A stretch of DNA of 10,364 nt from a virus (IMGVR_UViG_2657245521_000008), one strand, 5' to 3'. Numbered from the stretch's first letter, positions 2,803 through 10,364 are shown. The notes: generated by a model from the sequence alone, not told the origin. Program-made: numbers and translations.

Positions 2803-3753
2803 ATGAAATTACCTGCGCATAAATATTATTCTTTGGATAAAGCAGCCAAACTGGCCGGATGTGAAGTATCCGATTTAATACACTATGCAGCAATTGGGGT
2901 TTTAGAAATATGTATAAAAATTCCACCTATTGAATTGTTTTACCATTACCCAAAAAATGAAGATGCCGAGCCAGAATTACTTAAAGTTGAAACGGATAGT
3001 ATTTTTCATATAGATACAAAAGCAGCACATGAGAATTATCTCCTTGATCTGAGCAATAAGGCAGATAATCTCGAATCATATGGCTTATCATCACTTGATT
3101 ACAAAAATAGCGATAACTATATGTATTTTATGAGGTTTTCATACAAATCAGAACATTTCTCAGTTATAGAGCGATACAATGTTGGGAAGGATGAAAGAGA
3201 TATCGAAAGATGGAGCGGTCTATTAGCAATTCCGCCTGCGTTCATAGATAACGATGAGCGGGAGCTATCAGAATGGGATGATTGGGAGATCTCTGTATGC
3301 GAACTGATGCCTCCGAGATGTGACGAGTTTAGCAAATCGAATAATTATGAAATCGGAGCTTTTTATATTGACGGCTGGTATGAAATAAGCCGAAACAAAA
3401 TGTATATAACTGACTATGAATACAATCTTCTTATAAATGGAGGAAAATATATTTATGACAGACCCATGCACAAACCATCCGCAAACAAGTTATCCAATGA
3501 TATAAATACGCTAAAAGTTAATAAACGTGCCGAACGGTACGCAGTCAATAGGGAGAAACTATTAAAATCTGCAATTTATATACTTAGTAAGTATCCAAAT
3601 GAATGCAGGGGAGAAAGGAAAGAAATAAGCCCTGAGAAGTGGCGTGACTGTCTTGTTCGTCATTTAGACGAAGTTCCACCACTTATGATAACTAATGAAG
3701 ATGTAATTCTTAAACATCTACGATCTGCGGCAAATGGCAAAGTGGATAGTTAA
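2803..3753 (+). CDS. Hypothetical protein (316 aa), AT-rich cargo gene of unknown function; candidate accessory or anti-phage gene
   Basis: Complete ORF with a GAGAGGAAAG Shine-Dalgarno-like stretch 8-12 nt upstream, starting 18 nt after the int stop. Two 60-nt lines counted by hand give roughly 30-37 percent G+C, against about 55 percent in a sampled int line. The protein is rich in Y/K/N/E/D/I and I recognise no domain. Confidence 0.7.
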   Translation: MKLPAHKYYSLDKAAKLAGCEVSDLIHYAAIGVLEICIKIPPIELFYHYPKNEDAEPELLKVETDSIFHIDTKAAHENYLLDLSNKADNLESYGLSSLDYKNSDNYMYFMRFSYKSEHFSVIERYNVGKDERDIERWSGLLAIPPAFIDNDERELSEWDDWEISVCELMPPRCDEFSKSNNYEIGAFYIDGWYEISRNKMYITDYEYNLLINGGKYIYDRPMHKPSANKLSNDINTLKVNKRAERYAVNREKLLKSAIYILSKYPNECRGERKEISPEKWRDCLVRHLDEVPPLMITNEDVILKHLRSAANGKVDS

Positions 3754-3793: not shown

Positions 3794-3807
3794 TGTATAT
3801 CTATACA
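3794..3807. promoter_or_regulatory. 14-bp palindrome TGTATATCTATACA upstream of alpA; candidate operator
   Basis: TGTATA (3794-3799) and TATACA (3802-3807) are exact reverse complements separated by TC, about 50 nt upstream of the alpA ATG. It shares the TGTA half-site with the TGTACA cluster upstream of int. Confidence 0.3.
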
Positions 3808-3859
3808 GCTAGATTTCTCGTAACGAAGCAACAACTATCGCTAAGAGGTTACGGGAATC

Positions 3860-4063
3860 ATGAACATCGACACTATCCCTACAAAAGGCTATATCAGACG
3901 CTTTCGCCTGGCTGAATTGCTGGGCGTTAGTGTATCCACCATCGACCGTAAAGTAAGAAACGGTTCACTACCACGTCCGGTAAAGCTGGGAGAAAAAATA
4001 ACTGCGTTTGATGCGGTTGAGATTCACAACTGGCTGGCAGAACGCCGCGGGAAGGTGGCCTGA
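3860..4063 (+). CDS. alpA: AlpA-family phage transcriptional regulator / excisionase-like DNA-binding protein (67 aa)
   Basis: MNIDTIPTKGYIRRFRLAELLGVSVSTIDRKVRNGSLPRPVKLGEKITAFDAVEIHNWLAERRGKVA fits the AlpA/Vis pattern of a short helix-turn-helix followed by the LP.P.K.G and W motifs. Size and position after int match CP4-57 and PICI alpA. Confidence 0.8.
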   Translation: MNIDTIPTKGYIRRFRLAELLGVSVSTIDRKVRNGSLPRPVKLGEKITAFDAVEIHNWLAERRGKVA

Positions 4064-4494
4064 TGGAAAAGAAAAACCGCCCATTACAGGCGGCTAATTC
4101 AGATATTCGCGTATCTGATGTTACGCCCCTTACAAAATCCCTTCAAGCACCAAAGCGCACACCGAAAAAGCATCGTGCCAGAGTCTATATGCTGCGTACT
4201 GGTATAGAGGGATGGACAGAAAATGACATTCTTCGCTACTGCCGTCTGTCTTCTGGTCGTAACTATGCAACAGAGTTAGAACGCCAGCTTGGAATCACTC
4301 TGGAGCGTATCGACGAAAAGAATCCTGATGGTATCGGAACACACCTTCGCTACCGTTTCTCCTGCCGTGGTGATGTTCTGAAAGTGATCACTCATATTAA
4401 CCATCTTGCGAACATAAATGATCACAACGGACTTTCTCAGCCGGAAATTGCCGACATTCTGAAACTCTACCCGGACGCGTTTAACGCCGCTTAA
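4063..4494 (+). CDS. Hypothetical protein (143 aa), basic N-terminus; possibly DNA-binding
   Basis: Start ATG overlaps the alpA stop (TGATG), and an AAGGTGG Shine-Dalgarno sits just upstream. The protein reads plausibly but I recognise no family. Confidence 0.6.
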   Translation: MEKKNRPLQAANSDIRVSDVTPLTKSLQAPKRTPKKHRARVYMLRTGIEGWTENDILRYCRLSSGRNYATELERQLGITLERIDEKNPDGIGTHLRYRFSCRGDVLKVITHINHLANINDHNGLSQPEIADILKLYPDAFNAA

Positions 4495-4506
4495 CGGAGA
4501 CTGAAA

Positions 4507-5340
4507 ATGAACATCGAAAAAAGCAGATTAATTTCTGAGGCCGCCCCTCATCTGAACGCCTCTCTGAGCACAATTAACGGTAATGAATTTGCCGCAATTG
4601 TCCCGGTTATTCCTGGTCATATCGGTGGGCGTGAAACCAATATTGTTAGCGCAAAAGCGTTACACAAAGCGTTGGGCGTGGGAAAAGACTTCTCTACATG
4701 GATCACTGATCGCATCTCTGAATATGACTTCACCATTGGGCACGATTACTCAGTCCATAAAACAATTTCCCCAAATTTGGGGAAAAGCCCGAATGGCGCG
4801 GCTTACAGCAAGATTAAGCAGTCTGGCAGACCCGGCAAAGACTATCTGTTAAGTGTCGGAATGGCGAAAGAACTGGCAATGATCGAACGCAATGATCAGG
4901 GTCGCGCTATCCGCCGTTATTTCATCCAGTGCGAGGAAGAATTACAGCGTAGCGTGCCTGAAATCGCCGCCCGCTATCGTCGCCAGCTAAAAGCCCGTAT
5001 CAGTGCCGCAAACAACTTTAAGCCAATGTGCGATGCGCTGAATATGGCCCGTGCCGAGATGGGGAAAACGACGCAGCAACACCACTACACAAACGAGAGC
5101 AATATGATTTCTCGTATCGTTCTTGGTGGGCTAACTGCTAAGCAGTGGGCGCGGATAAATGGCTATTCTGGCGAACCTCGCGACCATATGAACGCAGAAC
5201 AGCTTGAGCACCTCTCATATCTCGAAAGCACCAATATCACGTTAATTGATATGGGCATGGAATATGAGCAGCGCAAAGGAGAACTCACCCGCCTGTCGCA
5301 ACGCTGGCTCGCCAAGCGTCTGGAGGCGCTCAATGTCTAA
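4507..5340 (+). CDS. Phage antirepressor-like protein with AntA/AntB-type N-terminal domain (277 aa)
   Basis: The segment AAIVPVIPGHIGGRETNIVSAKALHKALGVGKDFSTWITDRISEYDFTIGHDY followed by DYLLSVGMAKELAMIERNDQGRAIRRYFIQCEEEL matches the conserved AntA antirepressor signature as I recall it. GGAGA Shine-Dalgarno 7 nt upstream. Confidence 0.78.
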   Translation: MNIEKSRLISEAAPHLNASLSTINGNEFAAIVPVIPGHIGGRETNIVSAKALHKALGVGKDFSTWITDRISEYDFTIGHDYSVHKTISPNLGKSPNGAAYSKIKQSGRPGKDYLLSVGMAKELAMIERNDQGRAIRRYFIQCEEELQRSVPEIAARYRRQLKARISAANNFKPMCDALNMARAEMGKTTQQHHYTNESNMISRIVLGGLTAKQWARINGYSGEPRDHMNAEQLEHLSYLESTNITLIDMGMEYEQRKGELTRLSQRWLAKRLEALNV

Positions 5341-5512
5341 GCCAACAGGAACACCACAACCACAAAAACGCTACAAAGATGCCCACGGAGCACTCGTTAC
5401 TGTCGAAAGCGTGTCTCACAACCGAGTGACGTTTTATCGCGACGGGTATCAATCGCCATGCGTACAACCGCTGGCACGTTTCATGAAGGAGTTCGCGGAG
5501 GTTAACCAATGA
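5333..5512 (+). CDS. Small hypothetical protein (59 aa) translationally coupled to the antirepressor gene
   Basis: The ATG at 5333 is preceded by GGAGG (5322-5326) with a 6-nt spacer, and overlaps the upstream stop (caATGtcTAA). The track ORF 5246..5512 is the same frame, but its upstream part lies inside the antirepressor gene with no ribosome-binding site. Confidence 0.5.
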   Translation: MSKPTGTPQPQKRYKDAHGALVTVESVSHNRVTFYRDGYQSPCVQPLARFMKEFAEVNQ

Positions 5513-6576
5513 TACCCGTCCAGAAGAAGACATTTTCACTGGCTGGTATGTCGCCAAAATCCAGCAATATGACGGCAAAGTCAGGCATTAATACAGCAGA
5601 TGCAAGCAAAGTTTATCATTTGCTGGTGGTCGGAACGGATGCCTTAACCATACCAGAAATCACGGGCGATGATGTTAGCGTTGAGAAGGTCAGCGGCTGC
5701 GCCAGAGAATTTCTGGTCGTAGATGACCTGTTCTGCTCGTGTAGTGACTCCACAAAAACATTCGTCCACGCGCGTGACGTTAACGAAATGAGCGCGATGT
5801 ACTGTGCTTCTGGTTCTTCCAATAGTGAGTTTTCGGAGTCCATAAAAAAGAGCTTGCCGTTATGCGGCAACACGGTTTATGGTTATAAGGCACCTCATAA
5901 AACGGGTGCCGGGATTGGCGTCCTGGTAAATCGAATGGCGACATATGACGCGCCGAGCGTCTTTTTTTATGTCGTAGGTCTGACTCACCCATTTTTTGGG
6001 CGTTGGTGTATAATCCAGCGCCTTTGTCAATCAATGGTGGCTCAGGCAGGGGCTTCTTCGGAAGCGCCGGTATCCATTCGAGCCGGTTACGCCAACCCTG
6101 TCTGGGCTACCACCAGCGAAATTGGCGTTTCCGGTGGTAGCGTTACATGCTATCGAATGGAGGCTGCCACATGCTGGCTACTACCCCTACCCAAAAACCG
6201 CAATTTATCTGGATTATCGCCGCAGTTCGCCGCGATTGCCCGACAATTACCGCCAAAATTCATCATATTGCTGCCGAGTCTGAACGCGATGCTCGCCGTT
6301 CTCTGGTGCGCGATCACATCTGCTTTTTTGCTGGTCGTATCCGCATGGAGGTGGCACATGATTAAAACCTACGATGTGCATATGGATCCCCTCGAACGCA
6401 CAAGCCAGATCATCACACTGACAGAAGTGATTAACGACATTCTGGTGAGCAACTCTCCCTCACGAGACGAAAGACTAAAGGCGTTACTCGCGATATTGGA
6501 TCTCGCCGTTCGTGACGTTCATTTCCTGCTGGAAGGTGGACAAATGCCATGCAAAACGGGGGCAACCAATGAATAA
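5509..6576 (+). CDS. Hypothetical protein as the stop-free ORF (355 aa); integrity doubtful, possibly a fusion of an upstream gene, a non-coding control region and a separate 72-aa gene starting at 6358
   Basis: GGAGG (5497-5501) lies 7 nt before the ATG at 5509, which overlaps the upstream stop (ATGA). No stop occurs in this frame until 6574-6576. However, 5947-6170 carries terminator, promoter and hairpin features, and in 6171-6357 this frame uses rare codons (cta, tta, cga, agg, ata) while another frame looks genuinely coding. An internal ATG at 6358 has its own GGAGG. Confidence 0.4.
5947..5968 (+). terminator. Terminator-like hairpin with a 7-T tract, lying inside the 355-codon ORF
   Basis: gacgc (5947-5951) pairs with gcgtc (5957-5961) around a 5-nt loop, then TTTTTTT at 5962-5968. 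Stop codons occur in the other two forward frames right here (TGA at 5946-5948, TAG at 5975-5977). Confidence 0.3.
6009..6014 (+). promoter_or_regulatory. Perfect TATAAT -10 hexamer (no clear -35), about 160 nt upstream of the ORF at 6171; candidate promoter for the small-gene/primase operon or for a leader RNA
   Basis: TATAAT at 6009-6014 is immediately preceded by TG and sits in an otherwise GC-rich stretch, about 40 nt downstream of the terminator-like hairpin. Confidence 0.3.
6171..6365 (+). CDS. Small hypothetical protein (64 aa) in a different frame from the 355-codon ORF
   Basis: GGAGG at 6159-6163 lies 7 nt before the ATG at 6171. Codons are typical of E. coli genes (ctg, gct, acc, ccg, atc, gcc, cgc, gat, gtg). 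The stop overlaps the next start as ATGATTAA at 6358-6365. The track shows this frame as 6147..6365. Confidence 0.45.
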   Translation: MLATTPTQKPQFIWIIAAVRRDCPTITAKIHHIAAESERDARRSLVRDHICFFAGRIRMEVAHD

Positions 6577-6763
6577 CTCAATTAATACCCCTCGCCTTAC
6601 GTCCGCACTTCAATTAATCGAGCAAGCAGCGGCTGTCCTGGTTGCTGTCAGTCTTTCGGCTGAAGAAATGGACGCTGCTGATGTCGTGGATGCGATTAAA
6701 GCGTGCTCATCTTTGGTTAACGATGCCCGTGCCGAGCTGGTAATTCTTGGGGGTGAAAAATGA
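6569..6763 (+). CDS. Small hypothetical protein (64 aa)
   Basis: The ATG at 6569 overlaps the upstream stop as ATGAATAA, with GGGGG about 8 nt upstream. It is the plausible start within track ORF 6512..6763, and its stop overlaps the next ATG (ATGA at 6760-6763). Confidence 0.5.
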   Translation: MNNSINTPRLTSALQLIEQAAAVLVAVSLSAEEMDAADVVDAIKACSSLVNDARAELVILGGEK

Positions 6764-7023
6764 ATATCAACTTAATTTATCGTCATCCGTGTGAGCTGGA
6801 AATTGAATCATTGCTGGGGCGCGAAGAGCCATATCCAGACACATTCACTCCCGCAGATTGCGCGACTGAACGGCTTACCAGAGCGCGCACAGGTCTGGTT
6901 CATGTGATGAATGAGATTGTTCCCTCGGTGGGAGGGGAACAGGCGACAGTAATCAATAGCTGGCTACAAAAAGTTACCTCCCTGATAGATATCGGTTTAA
7001 TCGATGTGGAGAGTGCGAAATGA
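6760..7023 (+). CDS. Small hypothetical protein (87 aa)
   Basis: Complete ORF with start/stop overlaps on both sides (ATGA), GGGGGTG upstream, and ordinary coding-like composition. Confidence 0.6.
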   Translation: MNINLIYRHPCELEIESLLGREEPYPDTFTPADCATERLTRARTGLVHVMNEIVPSVGGEQATVINSWLQKVTSLIDIGLIDVESAK

Positions 7024-7241
7024 CCAACATCCAGCTCATTGAAGCGCAATGTCGCATCGAACAGGTTCAGACTGTTTTAGGGTTCTGGCTTGAAGGGGCC
7101 AGCCCCAGCAACAGAGACAAGTTAATGATTGGCGCGGTTATGTCACTGCTCAATGGCGTACCAGAAGCTATTCAGGAAGCGGACGAATTGTTGGGCAAAT
7201 ATGAGTTACAGAATCATTCAGGCGAGGCAAAACATGAATAA
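7020..7241 (+). CDS. Small hypothetical protein (73 aa)
   Basis: Complete ORF. The start overlaps the previous stop (ATGA), GGAGAG lies upstream, and the stop overlaps the next start as ATGAATAA at 7234-7241. Confidence 0.6.
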   Translation: MTNIQLIEAQCRIEQVQTVLGFWLEGASPSNRDKLMIGAVMSLLNGVPEAIQEADELLGKYELQNHSGEAKHE

Positions 7242-7836
7242 TTTCTTAACTTTCCATGCAGAAGCAACGCCTGACGGCGTAAACATCATGTACCGCAGCA
7301 ACGATGGCATGACAGAACGCGTTGAGACCGTCTCATATATTGATGCCGCAAATCGTCTGGATGCCGGGGATTATGACGATAAACCAGATGAAGGCATGTT
7401 TATACATCTCGCTATTGCCAGTGGCGGCAACCAGGGATATTTCGATTACACATCACAGCATCACGTGATTATGTGGCGCTGGCTGATAGCAACAGCATTC
7501 ATCAATGAAATGAGAAAGGAAAACGGCACCGTCAGCATTATTGATGACAGTGGCAATCATTCCGTGGTTTCTGTTTATTCCAATGGCATCGTCGCCATGC
7601 CGCTGTATCCAGTAGCAGAGCGCCTCGCTATGGCAAACAACATTGAGGGCGCAATGATCGAGAAATATGGTGTTGATGTCGGAACAAATAATGCCATCAT
7701 TTTTTACAGCAACATGTTCGATGTCGAACAGGGAACACTCACTTCGTTTGGGCGAGAAGTGCTTGCCGATCTTCACAACAGCTTTATTGCCGAACTAAAC
7801 GAAAACGGCATCCCAGAAGCACCAGTGACGCACTAA
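7234..7836 (+). CDS. Hypothetical protein (200 aa) immediately upstream of the primase gene
   Basis: The ATG at 7234 is preceded by GAGG with a 6-nt spacer. The track ORF starts at 7129, but that extension overlaps the upstream gene in another frame. No recognisable domain. Confidence 0.62.
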   Translation: MNNFLTFHAEATPDGVNIMYRSNDGMTERVETVSYIDAANRLDAGDYDDKPDEGMFIHLAIASGGNQGYFDYTSQHHVIMWRWLIATAFINEMRKENGTVSIIDDSGNHSVVSVYSNGIVAMPLYPVAERLAMANNIEGAMIEKYGVDVGTNNAIIFYSNMFDVEQGTLTSFGREVLADLHNSFIAELNENGIPEAPVTH

Positions 7837-7848
7837 ACGGGGGCCAGA

Positions 7849-10260
7849 ATGCGAAACATTGATCTTATCCGTCAGGTTATCAGTGCGTCTGAAAACAACT
7901 GGCCTCATGTGCTGGGCTGCCTGAACATAAATGTCCCTGACTCTCCGCGCCGTCATGCTCCCTGCCCTGCATGTGGGGGCAAAGATCGATTCCGGTTCGA
8001 TGACAACGGGCGCGGTAGCTTCATCTGTAATCAGTGCGGCGCTGGTGATGGGCTGGATTTAATTAAACGCGTAAATAACTGCGACACAACAGAGGCGGCG
8101 CTGCTTGCCGCTGATGTTCTGGGTATTGATTACCGGACAACGGAAACACCAGAAGCCACCAGCCAGAAACGGGAACAACTGGAAACCGAGCGCCAGCGAC
8201 GCGAACAGGAGCGCCTGAAAAGGGCGGAGAAGGACGAACAACAAAGACGGGATACGTTTTCCCGTCAGTTTGATGACATGCGCAGAAAGGCTGTAAACGG
8301 CAAATCTGATTATCTGGTTGCGAAAGGGGTAGGTGATTTTACATTCCCCGTGTTGCCCGATGGATCTCTGTTGCTGGCGCTGGTGGATAAATCCGGCGCA
8401 GTCACAGCAGCACAGACTATTACCTCACATGGTGAAAAAAGACTCCTGACAGGTTCAGCAAAGCGGGGGGCATATCACGCCATAAACGCACCAGAAACAA
8501 CACAGAGCATCTTAATCGCAGAAGGGCTGGCAACGGCATTATCTGCCCATTTAATTCGTCCAGAGGCGCTGACAGTGGCGGCGATTGATGCCGGGAACCT
8601 GTTATATGTCGCCCAGGTACTGCGGGATAAATTTCCTTCAGCACAAATCATCATTGCTGCGGATAACGACCACAGCGAAGGAAGACAAAACACGGGGAGA
8701 ATAGCAGCAGAAAAAGCAGCTTTATCTGTTTCTGGATGGGTGGCATTACCCCCGACAGGTCACAAAGCAGACTGGAATGATTACCACCAAAAACACGGCA
8801 TTAAATGCGCCACAGAAGCGTTCAATAAGTCAATGTACCAACCACAGGGTAATGGCGTGAAACAGGAGCCACAGACCATTGAGGGAAGCGATTTTAAGGT
8901 TATGGATACCGACCCACTGAAACCAAGAATAGAAAGCCGCGAGGATGGTATTTATTGGGTATCTCCGAGAGCTGACAGCCAGAGTGGAGAAATCATCAAT
9001 AACGAAAGCTGGTTATGTTCTCCGTTAAGCGTTATCGGTACTGGCAGAGACGATAAAGACCAGTATCTCATTCTTCGCTGGCTGTCGTTTGGTTCTGAAA
9101 CGCCGACAACCGCTGCCATTCCACTGGCTGATATTGGTGAACGTGAAGGATGGCGCACACTTAAAGCTGGTGGGGTAAATGTCACGACCAAAAGCAGCCT
9201 CAGAGCAATACTGGCAGACTGGCTACAACGCAGTGGCTCTCGTGAATTGTGGCGTGTTGCTCATGCCACTGGCTGGCAATGCGGAGCGTACATCATGCCT
9301 GATGGGGAAATCATCGGAACACCTGAAAATCCTGTGCTGTTCAGCGGGAGAAGCTCAGCCGCAGCCGGATATACCGTCTCAGGGAGCGCGAAAAGCTGGC
9401 GTGATAACGTGGCGCGTCTGGCCTTTGGTAACTATTCAATGATGACCGGGATCGGCGCAGCACTGGCAGCGCCATTGATTGGGCTGGTGGGCGCTGACGG
9501 GTTCGGCATTCATTTCTATGAGCAGTCGAGCGCGGGTAAGACCACCACGGCAAACGTGGCGAGCAGCTTATACGGCAACCCTGATTTACTGCGGCTGACG
9601 TGGTACGGAACCGCGCTGGGGCTGGCAAATGAGGCCGCCGCCCACAATGACGGATTAATGCCGCTTGATGAAGTTGGTCAGGGCGCTGATCCTGTCAGCG
9701 TTTCACAGTCTGCCTATGCGTTATTTAACGGTGTAGGGAAACTGCAAGGCGCTAAAGATGGTGGAAACCGGGATCTAAAACGCTGGCGTACAGTGGCAAT
9801 CAGCACCGGAGAAATGGATTTAGAAACATTTATCGCTACTTCCGGGCGAAAAACCAAAGCCGGGCAACTGGTGCGACTGCTGAATATTCCGTTGAGTAAA
9901 GCAGTACGCTTTCACGATTACCAGAACGGAAAACAGCACGCAGACGCACTGAAAGACGCTTACCAGCATCACCATGGCGCAGCCGGGCGTGAGTGGATTA
10001 AATGGCTGGCAGACCACCAGCAACAGGCTATTAAAACTGTTCGTGATTGCGAAAGCAGATGGAGAAGCCTGATCCCATCCGATTATGGTGAGCAGGTTCA
10101 CCGTGTAGCCGCGCGATTTGCCATTCTGGAGGCCGCATTGTTGTTAGGCGAGGTTGTAACAGGCTGGGATGCTCAGACATGCCGTGATGCGATACAGCAC
10201 AGCTATAACGCATGGTTGCGCGAGTTCGGCACAAGTACGTGGGAACCGTGGTCGGGTTAA
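7849..10260 (+). CDS. Primase / replication initiation protein (803 aa): N-terminal zinc-binding primase motif, Toprim domain, C-terminal NTPase/helicase-like domain (P4 alpha / PICI Pri-Rep type)
   Basis: CPACGGKDRFRFDDNGRGSFICNQCGAGDGLDL at residues 38-72 is a Cys4 primase zinc-ribbon motif. ILIAEGLATALSAH ... IIIAADNDHSEGRQNTGRIAAEKAA at residues 221-290 is Toprim-like (E ... DxD). A P-loop-like SSAGKTT lies at residues 560-566. GGGGG Shine-Dalgarno precedes the ATG. Confidence 0.9.
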   Translation: MRNIDLIRQVISASENNWPHVLGCLNINVPDSPRRHAPCPACGGKDRFRFDDNGRGSFICNQCGAGDGLDLIKRVNNCDTTEAALLAADVLGIDYRTTETPEATSQKREQLETERQRREQERLKRAEKDEQQRRDTFSRQFDDMRRKAVNGKSDYLVAKGVGDFTFPVLPDGSLLLALVDKSGAVTAAQTITSHGEKRLLTGSAKRGAYHAINAPETTQSILIAEGLATALSAHLIRPEALTVAAIDAGNLLYVAQVLRDKFPSAQIIIAADNDHSEGRQNTGRIAAEKAALSVSGWVALPPTGHKADWNDYHQKHGIKCATEAFNKSMYQPQGNGVKQEPQTIEGSDFKVMDTDPLKPRIESREDGIYWVSPRADSQSGEIINNESWLCSPLSVIGTGRDDKDQYLILRWLSFGSETPTTAAIPLADIGEREGWRTLKAGGVNVTTKSSLRAILADWLQRSGSRELWRVAHATGWQCGAYIMPDGEIIGTPENPVLFSGRSSAAAGYTVSGSAKSWRDNVARLAFGNYSMMTGIGAALAAPLIGLVGADGFGIHFYEQSSAGKTTTANVASSLYGNPDLLRLTWYGTALGLANEAAAHNDGLMPLDEVGQGADPVSVSQSAYALFNGVGKLQGAKDGGNRDLKRWRTVAISTGEMDLETFIATSGRKTKAGQLVRLLNIPLSKAVRFHDYQNGKQHADALKDAYQHHHGAAGREWIKWLADHQQQAIKTVRDCESRWRSLIPSDYGEQVHRVAARFAILEAALLLGEVVTGWDAQTCRDAIQHSYNAWLREFGTSTWEPWSG

Positions 10261-10364
10261 TCATTGCGGGCGTTGCCCTGCACTTTAAAATTCCCGAAGG
10301 TTACACTCTGACCTTGATGCTGATTACCACCCTCGCCAGCTACCTGATATTGCGCAAAAACTAC

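Follow-up and report, generated by a model that had tools for sequence, protein, structure and literature searches.

A likely P4-like immunity region with two small RNAs and a long bridging reading frame ahead of the primase gene of an Escherichia island

What controls a run of small, overlapping genes that leads directly into a primase gene? The question is raised by a viral DNA sequence of 10,364 nucleotides (nt), IMGVR_UViG_2657245521_000008, referred to here at its full length as the window. An original prediction, made from the sequence alone, described its interval 5333-7851 as a chain of small translationally coupled open reading frames (ORFs) with recurring overlap junctions, a duplicated initiation motif and no recognisable family, laid out like the left operon of P4, in which small modulators precede the primase. 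Our analysis indicates that the interval and the primase gene behind it are likely the immunity and early-operon region of a P4-like or Gram-negative PICI-like (phage-inducible chromosomal island) element, built like the P4 left operon, and that the overlapping small-gene chain leading to the primase is probably under the control of two small RNAs together with a long bridging reading frame. The features of this operon described below, from the DUF4222 gene to the primase gene, all lie on the plus strand. The system is of a known type, its biology being already established for P4, P1/P7 and Gifsy-1, and what is gained is annotation and comparative detail, with no new principle.

The expectation of small modulators ahead of the primase holds as an analogy with P4, but what can be recognised as regulators in the interval is a pair of small RNAs together with a translated bridging frame, not small modulator proteins. 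The module was searched for with Rfam models RF01695 and RF01394/RF03163. An IsrK/seqA-like RNA at 5890-5967 scores 67.1 bits against RF01394 (gathering threshold 50), and a terminator scan assigns it an intrinsic terminator (stem 5947-5961 and a T-run). A C4/CI-like antisense RNA at 6030-6117 matches RF01695 over the full length of the model at 79.5 bits (gathering threshold 45); its fold has an energy of -47.2 kcal/mol (z = -6.2), and its helices co-vary in 18 sequences. The c4-a1b1 model gave only 17.9 bits on the window, against a threshold of 46.7. IsrK has been equated with seqA, and C4 with CI (PMC3632133). A scan for the Icd-like protein encoded just downstream returned 18 related loci from other Enterobacteriaceae genera; C4 passes the Rfam threshold in all 18 and isrK in 17, in the same order, and both are also found in P4. 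None of the five annotated copies of the interval that we inspected carries an RNA gene annotation there. The labels given by the Prokaryotic Genome Annotation Pipeline (PGAP) are 'DUF4222', 'ash family protein', sometimes 'Icd-like', and four hypothetical proteins; about 500 of 5,426 complete E. coli genomes have the region labelled as an 'ash family protein' and hypothetical proteins.

C4 carries two recognition stretches, b' (UCCAUUCGA, 6073-6081) in a hairpin loop and a' (ACGCCAA, 6089-6095) in a single-stranded stretch, and each has two partners. The b' stretch is complementary to b1 (TCGAATGG, 5931-5938), in an unpaired stretch of IsrK, and to b2 (TCGAATGGA, 6153-6161), while a' is complementary to a1 (TTGGCGT, 5915-5921), in the IsrK hairpin loop, and to a2 (TTGGCGT, 6122-6128). 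The pairing stretches are exact in the window, 7-9 nt long and at accessible positions. The downstream partners form a target region at 6122-6163 that consists of a2, a small variable hairpin, b2 and the Shine-Dalgarno sequence of icd (GGAGG, 6159-6163; 8 nt before the ATG at 6171). This ribosome-binding site overlaps b2, and the overlap holds in all loci.

The complementarity is maintained while the sequences change. There are 12 variants of b' and 7 of a' among the loci, and every locus has matching complements at both the upstream (a1, b1) and the downstream (a2, b2) targets. In the 18-sequence alignment, which includes P4, changes on both sides are seen in 8 of the 12 b'-b2 pairs and 6 of the 7 a'-a2 pairs; 94% of the cells are paired, compared with 36-49% when the partners are slid, and none of 500 shuffles reaches the observed values. 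The same 18 sequences also contain an alternative hairpin (6106-6141), in which the 3' stem strand of C4 (GCTACCACC, 6106-6114) pairs with a downstream repeat of its 5' partner (GGTGGTAGC, 6133-6141) and a2 is placed in the loop; it is 98% paired and 5 of its 9 pairs co-vary.

Variation at the specificity sites is sharply localised. Eight Escherichia islands that are otherwise almost identical carry four specificity types (those of the window, FORC_031, G749 and JSWP021), and their pairwise diversity is 0.15-0.33 in 5900-6199, compared with 0.000-0.004 in 5840-5899 and 6200-6379. Because the diversity is confined between an invariant promoter region and an invariant icd, it bears the signature of an exchangeable heteroimmunity cassette.

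A putative constitutive promoter, in the position of P4 PLE, lies directly upstream of isrK at 5854-5883 (-35 TTGCCG, 5854-5859; -10 TATGGT, 5878-5883; +1 at about 5890). The motif cTTGCCG-N17/18-TATGGT is conserved there in about 17 of 19 loci, and the P4 counterpart of TATGGT is TATAGT, an annotated -10 at 2367-2372. C4 was also considered for a promoter of its own. A perfect TATAAT (6009-6014) stands 16 nt upstream of the C4 match, and P4 has an annotated '-10 consensus' at a similar position; the element is not conserved, however, the spacer being 21-62 nt in other loci. In four related loci the spacer is cut to 21-25 nt, and in strain JSWP021 38 nt of it are missing, so TATAAT is probably not a required promoter.

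The first gene after the RNA target (6171-6365, 64 amino acids (aa)) is Icd-like and resembles P4 Kil. It scores 70.4 bits on NF033153 (cutoff 25), a model on which the P4 65-aa ORF scores 76 bits, its product is 41% identical to that of the P4 ORF (E = 4e-9), and the gene is conserved in 19 loci. Its 5' part contains a candidate Rho-utilisation region at 6178-6255 (29 C and 12 G; ratio 2.23, the maximum of the scan), which is the most C-rich and G-poor 78-nt stretch within 3800-7900 and as such is suggestive only. The 3' end of icd forms a coupling cassette at 6345-6365, with GGAGG at 6347-6351, an ATG at 6358 and the icd stop TAA at 6363-6365. The pattern, GGAGGTGG or GGGGGTG followed by an ATG(A) that overlaps the icd stop, is found in all loci and in P4, whatever gene comes next.

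These two initiation regions had been taken as copies of one motif. The strings reported for them, ATGGAGGCTGCCACATG at 6157-6173 and ATGGAGGTGGCACATG at 6345-6360, are exact, as are the overlaps quoted elsewhere in the chain (ATGA at 5509, 6760 and 7020; ATGAATAA at 6569-6576 and 7234-7241; ATGATTAA at 6358-6365). What they represent is two distinct conserved elements, b2 fused to the icd Shine-Dalgarno sequence in one case and the icd 3' coupling cassette in the other. We tried 6345-6360 as a further C4 target and rejected it: only 5 nt are complementary (AUGGA/UCCAU), and the bases ahead of GGAGG show no correspondence with the b' loop from locus to locus. The identity of the two 8-mers ATGAATAA is unremarkable: with ATG and TAA fixed, two positions are all that can vary.

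The DNA that encodes the two RNAs is also covered by one long reading frame. This eta-like ORF of 355 codons (5509-6576 in the ORF listing), annotated 'ash family protein', begins 381 nt upstream of isrK +1, spans the isrK promoter, IsrK, the terminator, C4, a2/b2 and, in another frame, icd, and ends in frame with the 72-aa ORF that follows icd. Here the predicted chain of coupled small ORFs fails: overlap coupling is real and conserved, but 5509-6171 is occupied by this single ORF, which has no stop until 6576. The ORF at 6171 is nested within it, in a different frame, so no start-on-stop junction exists at 6157-6173.

The frame is open throughout the loci compared. Relative to C4, one frame is free of stops in 19 of 19 loci, from upstream of IsrK to past the icd ATG, and it is open in P4 too; summed over the 19 loci, whose median nucleotide identity is 68%, the stops between isrK and the ATG number 61, 0 and 59 in the three frames. 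The distance from isrK to C4 is 140, 128, 125, 101 or 98 nt, and 185 nt in P4, and every offset from 140 (-12, -15, -39, -42, and +45 in P4) is divisible by 3. The frame has its first ATG 84-396 nt before isrK +1, and in 15 of 20 loci this ATG overlaps the stop of an upstream ORF. The only change of phase is a 1-nt difference in the spacer between the Shine-Dalgarno sequence and the ATG of icd: the long frame is in frame with icd in 11 of 19 loci and in P4, and out of frame in 8, including the window.

For the encoded amino acids, on the other hand, no constraint is detectable. Among close copies the ratio of nonsynonymous to synonymous polymorphism (pN/pS) over 5890-6168 is 0.93, with 43, 38 and 40 variable sites at the three codon positions. 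Over C4 the amino-acid identity is alike in the three frames (0.47, 0.51 and 0.50) and nucleotide differences are flat across codon positions. Since the frame is free of stops in all 19 loci and yet shows no detectable amino-acid constraint, it is translation itself that seems to matter; what seems to be preserved is the frame's translatability and its coupling, and not a protein product.

These results bear on the view that the interval is no more than independent small protein genes in a row, one of them at 5509, that modulate the helper phage or replication with no RNA regulator. The overlapping junctions on which that view is built are real, the ORFs from 6358 on show coding-type substitution patterns, and P4 has epsilon and orf151 in the equivalent position. 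It fares badly further upstream. No small ORF fills 5512-6170, where the only open frame is the one of 355 codons; 5890-6168 has no codon periodicity and the pN/pS given above; and two RNA families stand well over threshold in the interval, backed by three-way co-variation. We regard the view as highly improbable.

The name given to the long ORF deserves separate consideration. Phage_ASH (Pfam PF10554) matches it with 105.3 bits (gathering threshold 26), but only over aa 124-232, which correspond to nt 5878-6204 and thus to both RNAs and the downstream target. The conservation captured by the family does not come from amino-acid selection; what the model matches here is the pair of RNAs, isrK and C4. 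A true folded domain belonging to the 'Bro network', with an activity of its own and an only secondary overlap with the RNAs, would be expected from the existence of the Pfam family and its score here, from its fusion to Rha or AntA-type domains in phages, and from its treatment as a Bro-network domain in PMC10111431. Such a domain is very unlikely in view of the frame-independent identity over C4, the flat distribution of differences and a pN/pS of about 0.93, and RNA pairing explains the conservation pattern.

It is rather improbable, too, that the 'ash family' ORF is an annotation artefact, 5509-6170 being an untranslated RNA-bearing leader and the open frame functionless. The exact coincidence of Phage_ASH with the RNA genes and the lack of amino-acid-level constraint would agree with this, and PGAP sometimes splits the ORF into a pseudogene, icd and the 72-aa ORF. 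An untranslated leader does not, however, account for the absence of stops from one frame alone in sequences so diverged, for isrK-to-C4 spacings that differ only in steps of 3, or for the overlap of the first ATG with the upstream stop, and both P4 eta (PMC10111431) and Gifsy-1 orf45 (PMC4825925) are reported as translated.

We give equal weight, for and against, to the more specific proposal that the long frame is a sequence-independent ribosome bridge, kept open and coupled at both ends by selection that leaves its protein product untouched, which leads from AntA/DUF4222 across the hypervariable, exchangeable RNA cassette into the replication operon, with the 1-nt change in the spacer deciding between an extended Icd and reading into the next gene. 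If this were general for PICI-like islands and for lambdoid Rha/antirepressor genes with the same RNAs, an entire Pfam 'domain' would in reality be an RNA module that ribosomes translate for regulatory reasons. In two lambdoid phages the isrK-C4 pair lies inside ORFs labelled 'Rha protein' or 'putative antirepressor' (phage PhiR47_1, L027, 843-1991; Salmonella phage 118970_sal3, L028, 849-1991), and in PhiR47_1 Phage_ASH (aa 117-212) is followed in frame by Phage_pRha. Because these lambdoid ORFs contain the RNA pair, an open frame over isrK-C4 is not limited to satellites.

The layout proposed originally, that of the P4 left operon, is borne out by the comparison. The order and spacing of features agree, isrK/seqA and C4/CI are found by the same Rfam models, and P4 DNA aligns to window 6031-6192 at 71% identity. 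In P4, isrK is at 2379-2456 and C4 at 2564-2651, and a stop-free frame (2250-2903, with ATGATGATG at 2304-2312) starts upstream of the constitutive promoter and spans both RNAs, as the long ORF does here. The 65-aa Icd-like kil (2706-2903) starts about 142 nt after the start of C4, the GTG start of the next gene, epsilon (from 2896), overlaps the kil stop, and the primase is at the end of the operon. The P4 transcript is processed to CI; Kil is a truncated Eta, translated on read-through; full-length Eta is made only from the upstream late promoter, coupled to the alpA homologue, and its translation prevents termination (PMC10111431).

The two operons differ in several respects. In P4, kil is the in-frame 3' part of eta, whereas the eta-like ORF of the window has icd in another frame and runs in frame into the 72-aa gene, to which it is fused. 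Upstream, it is coupled to DUF4222/AntA and not directly to the alpA homologue. No window ORF matches the Derepression family PF25738, on which P4 epsilon scores 170 bits, or resembles orf151; five unrelated small ORFs occupy the epsilon/orf151 slot instead.

The immI region of P1/P7 has an RNA of the same Rfam family, whose two-part (a, b) recognition is likewise duplicated upstream and downstream; b2 masks the icd ribosome-binding site there as well, and specificity variants define heteroimmunity. Citron and Schuster are said to have described in 1990 the P1/P7 C4 antisense RNA mechanism, with its a1b1 and a2b2 targets followed by icd and ant. In the window the upstream targets lie in a terminated IsrK-type RNA, and icd is followed by the small-ORF chain and the primase, not by an antirepressor as in P1/P7.

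A third counterpart is isrK-orf45-anrP of Gifsy-1 in Salmonella (PMC4825925), with an IsrK that has its own terminator, a C4-like RNA (STnc1160, processed in Gifsy-1) and an overlapping ORF. That ORF is translated, conserved in nucleotides and variable in amino acids, and joined to the next gene by an AUGA coupling (PMC4825925). However, orf45 is short and starts downstream of IsrK, whereas the frame in the window starts 381 nt upstream of it, and the cargo is an antirepressor in Gifsy-1 and a replication module in the window. The order of genes along the one strand, int and alpA, then AntA/DUF4222/Ash (Bro), then a DUF5906/DUF927-type primase, is that of a Gram-negative PICI (PMC10111431), for whose Bro zones matches to C4 and isrK have already been reported (PMC10111431). 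As for the Late zone of a PICI, the truncated primase at the end of the window leaves none in view.

By homology with P4, P1 and Gifsy-1 we infer RNA processing, a translational block, Rho termination and bypass by translation, as follows. The promoter inside the long ORF (about 5854-5883, the PLE equivalent) would start transcription at about 5890, and most such transcripts would end at the IsrK terminator (about 5967). Those that read through would yield the C4/CI-like RNA (6030-6117), whose a'/b' would pair with a2/b2 (6122-6161) and cover the Shine-Dalgarno sequence of the Icd/Kil-like gene. With no ribosomes on icd, its C-rich 5' region would be exposed and transcription would probably terminate in a Rho-dependent manner, so that the coupled chain (72, 64, 87, 73 and 200 aa) and the primase would be silent. 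These steps, from promoter to silencing, are modelled on P4 and P1. The a1/b1 of IsrK would be a second pairing site for C4, a co-target as in P4 or a decoy or activator as in Gifsy-1. Transcription from the alpA-AntA-DUF4222 operon would provide a route that is insensitive to immunity, since translating ribosomes would keep the RNA occupied: entering the 355-codon ORF through the ATGA coupling at 5509, ribosomes would translate through IsrK, C4, the targets and icd into the 72-aa frame and down the chain, and the operon would be read to the primase. This bypass is modelled on P4 eta and on the evidence here for an open frame and coupling.

Such a switch accounts for how widespread islands could keep their replication genes silent, for the diversity hot spot with four specificity types among near-identical islands, and for an open frame that is kept without amino-acid constraint. 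With the genes chained by overlapping codons, a block at one ribosome-binding site can silence all the small genes. Some details may add slightly to the literature: the open frame without constraint, the toggling of its phase, the sharply bounded hypervariable cassette and the recognition that Phage_ASH is what two RNA genes give when translated. The overall picture is unchanged by them.

The module might instead work mainly as an activator switch of the Gifsy-1 type, in which IsrK, acting in trans, opens an inactive mRNA fold or titrates C4 and so turns on icd and the chain, and not as repressor-based immunity. IsrK can compete for C4 because its a1/b1 are identical in specificity to a2/b2, the alternative co-varying hairpin involves the 3' strand of C4, and experiments in Gifsy-1 point in this direction (PMC4825925). 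The layout and the DNA homology are nevertheless with P4, where CI, seqA and seqC together cause termination, and we consider a mainly activating role unlikely; the activator and repressor modes are not mutually exclusive.

Several observations weigh against the P4-like immunity region as we read it. The role of IsrK could be repression, as in P4, or activation, as in Gifsy-1. A generic promoter scan found no consensus promoter in the region, and the promoter proposed at 5854-5883 is read from conservation; the base composition from which we read Rho dependence is likewise suggestive only. Because icd is out of frame with the long ORF in the window, unlike in P4, ribosomes on that ORF do not make Icd. 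The coding signal in 5509-5889 is weak (pN/pS 0.54; variable sites 18/8/17). Finally, the primase is truncated in the window, and the operon may for this reason be a dead remnant in its source genome.

The coupled chain itself is extensive. It enters the interval with a DUF4222 gene (5333-5512, 59 aa; Pfam PF13973, 87 bits; pN/pS 0.25; DUF4222 in relatives according to PGAP), whose start overlaps the stop of the AntA-domain gene (ATGTCTAA, 5333-5340) and whose stop overlaps the ATG at 5509 (ATGA). Between 3860 and 10260, 8 of 10 gene junctions are overlaps of 1-8 nt, and at the remaining two the genes stand 12 nt apart. Across 19 related loci about 77 of 94 junctions from icd to the primase overlap by 1, 4 or 8 nt, though the genes differ; the count is approximate, as it comes from a greedy ORF-chaining script that favours overlapping starts. 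Depending on the locus, the primase is preceded by as few as 1 or as many as about 9 small ORFs.

The five ORFs after icd vary in how widely they are shared. The 72-aa ORF (6358-6576; pN/pS 0.21; variable sites 2/2/8 by codon position; called by PGAP in strain G749) has homologues that are 40-45% identical and also follow icd in 3 of 17 loci outside Escherichia, in other genera; to judge from the frames, re-initiation after icd can give its product on its own, and translation of the 355-codon ORF can give it as the C-terminal part of a longer protein. Homologues of the 64-aa ORF (6569-6763; pN/pS 0.08; only sub-threshold family matches) are found in Escherichia copies only, and in none of the 17 loci. 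The 87-aa ORF (6760-7023; pN/pS 0.58 among close copies) has homologues in 9 of the 17, those that are 44-53% identical to it occurring in seven other loci, and 87-aa ORFs sit at differing positions of the chain. The 73-aa ORF (7020-7241; phrog_20558; pN/pS 0.00, all 4 variable sites being third positions) has homologues in 7, 33-53% identical, and the 200-aa ORF (7234-7836; phrog_1515; pN/pS 0.32) in 12, and the latter is conserved in the majority of related loci, where it takes one of the final places ahead of the primase. Overall, homologues of the small ORFs outside Escherichia are 25-61% identical.

The downstream ORFs show coding-type substitution patterns (pN/pS 0.00-0.32 for those at 6358, 6569, 7020 and 7234), the 87-aa ORF only weakly (0.58), and they vary between elements. 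The absence of such patterns, which the original prediction named as a refutation of the small ORFs, is therefore not what is seen. The statement that none of the predicted genes has a recognisable family does not stand, given DUF4222 at 5333-5512, the Icd-like NF033153 at 6171-6365, Phage_ASH in the 355-codon ORF and phrog_1515 at 7234-7836. For the small ORFs in 6358-7836, Pfam, NCBIfam, PHROGs and PADLOC gave only matches of unknown function or below threshold. BLASTP of the small ORFs against P4 orf88, epsilon and orf151, and among themselves, returned nothing (for epsilon and orf151, none with E < 0.01). Sequence searches of PDB with the 200-, 87- and 73-aa ORFs gave nothing convincing, and no structural match was found for the 200-aa protein. 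Searches of large databases with the same three ORFs gave no informative names, a 'nicotinic acetylcholine receptor' label being spurious, and a relationship of the 200-aa ORF to DUF5375 is unsupported in current Pfam. Within the interval, anything new, such as factors that manipulate a helper phage, is most likely to be found among the five small ORFs that separate icd from the primase.

A second diversity peak among the close copies lies at 7460-7819, in the C-terminal third of the 200-aa ORF, with pairwise differences of up to 0.20 at 7640-7699, while the rest of the chain is nearly invariant. This diversity may track the type of primase that follows. The window is a mosaic, combining a 200-aa gene of the MB165/JSWP021 type (98%) with a primase of the L003 or TOPRIM-DUF927 type (99%). 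In L003 and L021-L023 roughly 690 nt, with two extra ORFs (113 and 123 aa), lie between the two genes; the window lacks this stretch at 7837-7848.

The operon is part of a one-strand island in an Escherichia chromosome, whose genes rph and yicC are found at the start of the window. The island comprises an integrase (1531-2784), a cargo ORF (2803-3753), an alpA-like gene (3860-4063), a 143-aa ORF (4063-4494) and the AntA-domain gene (4507-5340), and the coupled operon ends with a primase-helicase gene (7849-10237), which is 99% identical to its L003 counterpart, a primase of the TOPRIM/DUF927 type that is annotated in L021/L022. Near-identical copies of the island, at yicC-dinD or at tRNA-Thr, are carried by about 470-500 of 5,426 complete E. 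coli genomes. In the window the primase ORF ends abruptly at about 10237, where a fragment of yhfK starts: 10238-10364 is 100% identical to an internal fragment of this core gene, which is carried by all 5,426 genomes and is not in the yicC-region stretches inspected. Either a large rearrangement or deletion has its end inside the island at this junction, or the assembly is chimeric.

The cargo ORF at 2803-3753, between the integrase and alpA, encodes 316 aa, has a GC content of 36% compared with 49-54% in its neighbours, and has no match in NCBIfam, PHROGs or PADLOC. Its position looks like a variable cargo slot, because FORC_031 has a different, 216-aa gene there and MB165 has nothing. The int-alpA RNA motif (Rfam RF02996) occurs upstream of alpA in nine relatives (L003, L006, L008, L011, L014 and L016-L019; 43-57 bits) and was not detected in the window, whose int-alpA gap holds the cargo ORF. 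The C-terminal part of the AntA-domain protein (aa 165-266) matches the PADLOC candidate defence model PDC-S22 (E = 4.5e-11).

In intact relatives (FORC_031, L001, 14045-18902; L026) the segment from the primase to dinD encodes a 'phage DNA ejection protein', a large hypothetical protein and a PerC-family regulator. The genes psu, sid and delta, for which no homology search was run, are absent from the window, which is truncated, and none is annotated by name in the inspected parts of FORC_031 and MB165 (L001 and L002) or of L026; in a true P4-like locus (L030), psu and sid adjoin the same module. The module from alpA to the 200-aa gene is 97-99% identical between the window and both FORC_031 and MB165, despite different integrases and different sites (yicC-dinD in comparison with tRNA-Thr beside proA). 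Exchange of the integration module is independent of the regulatory module.

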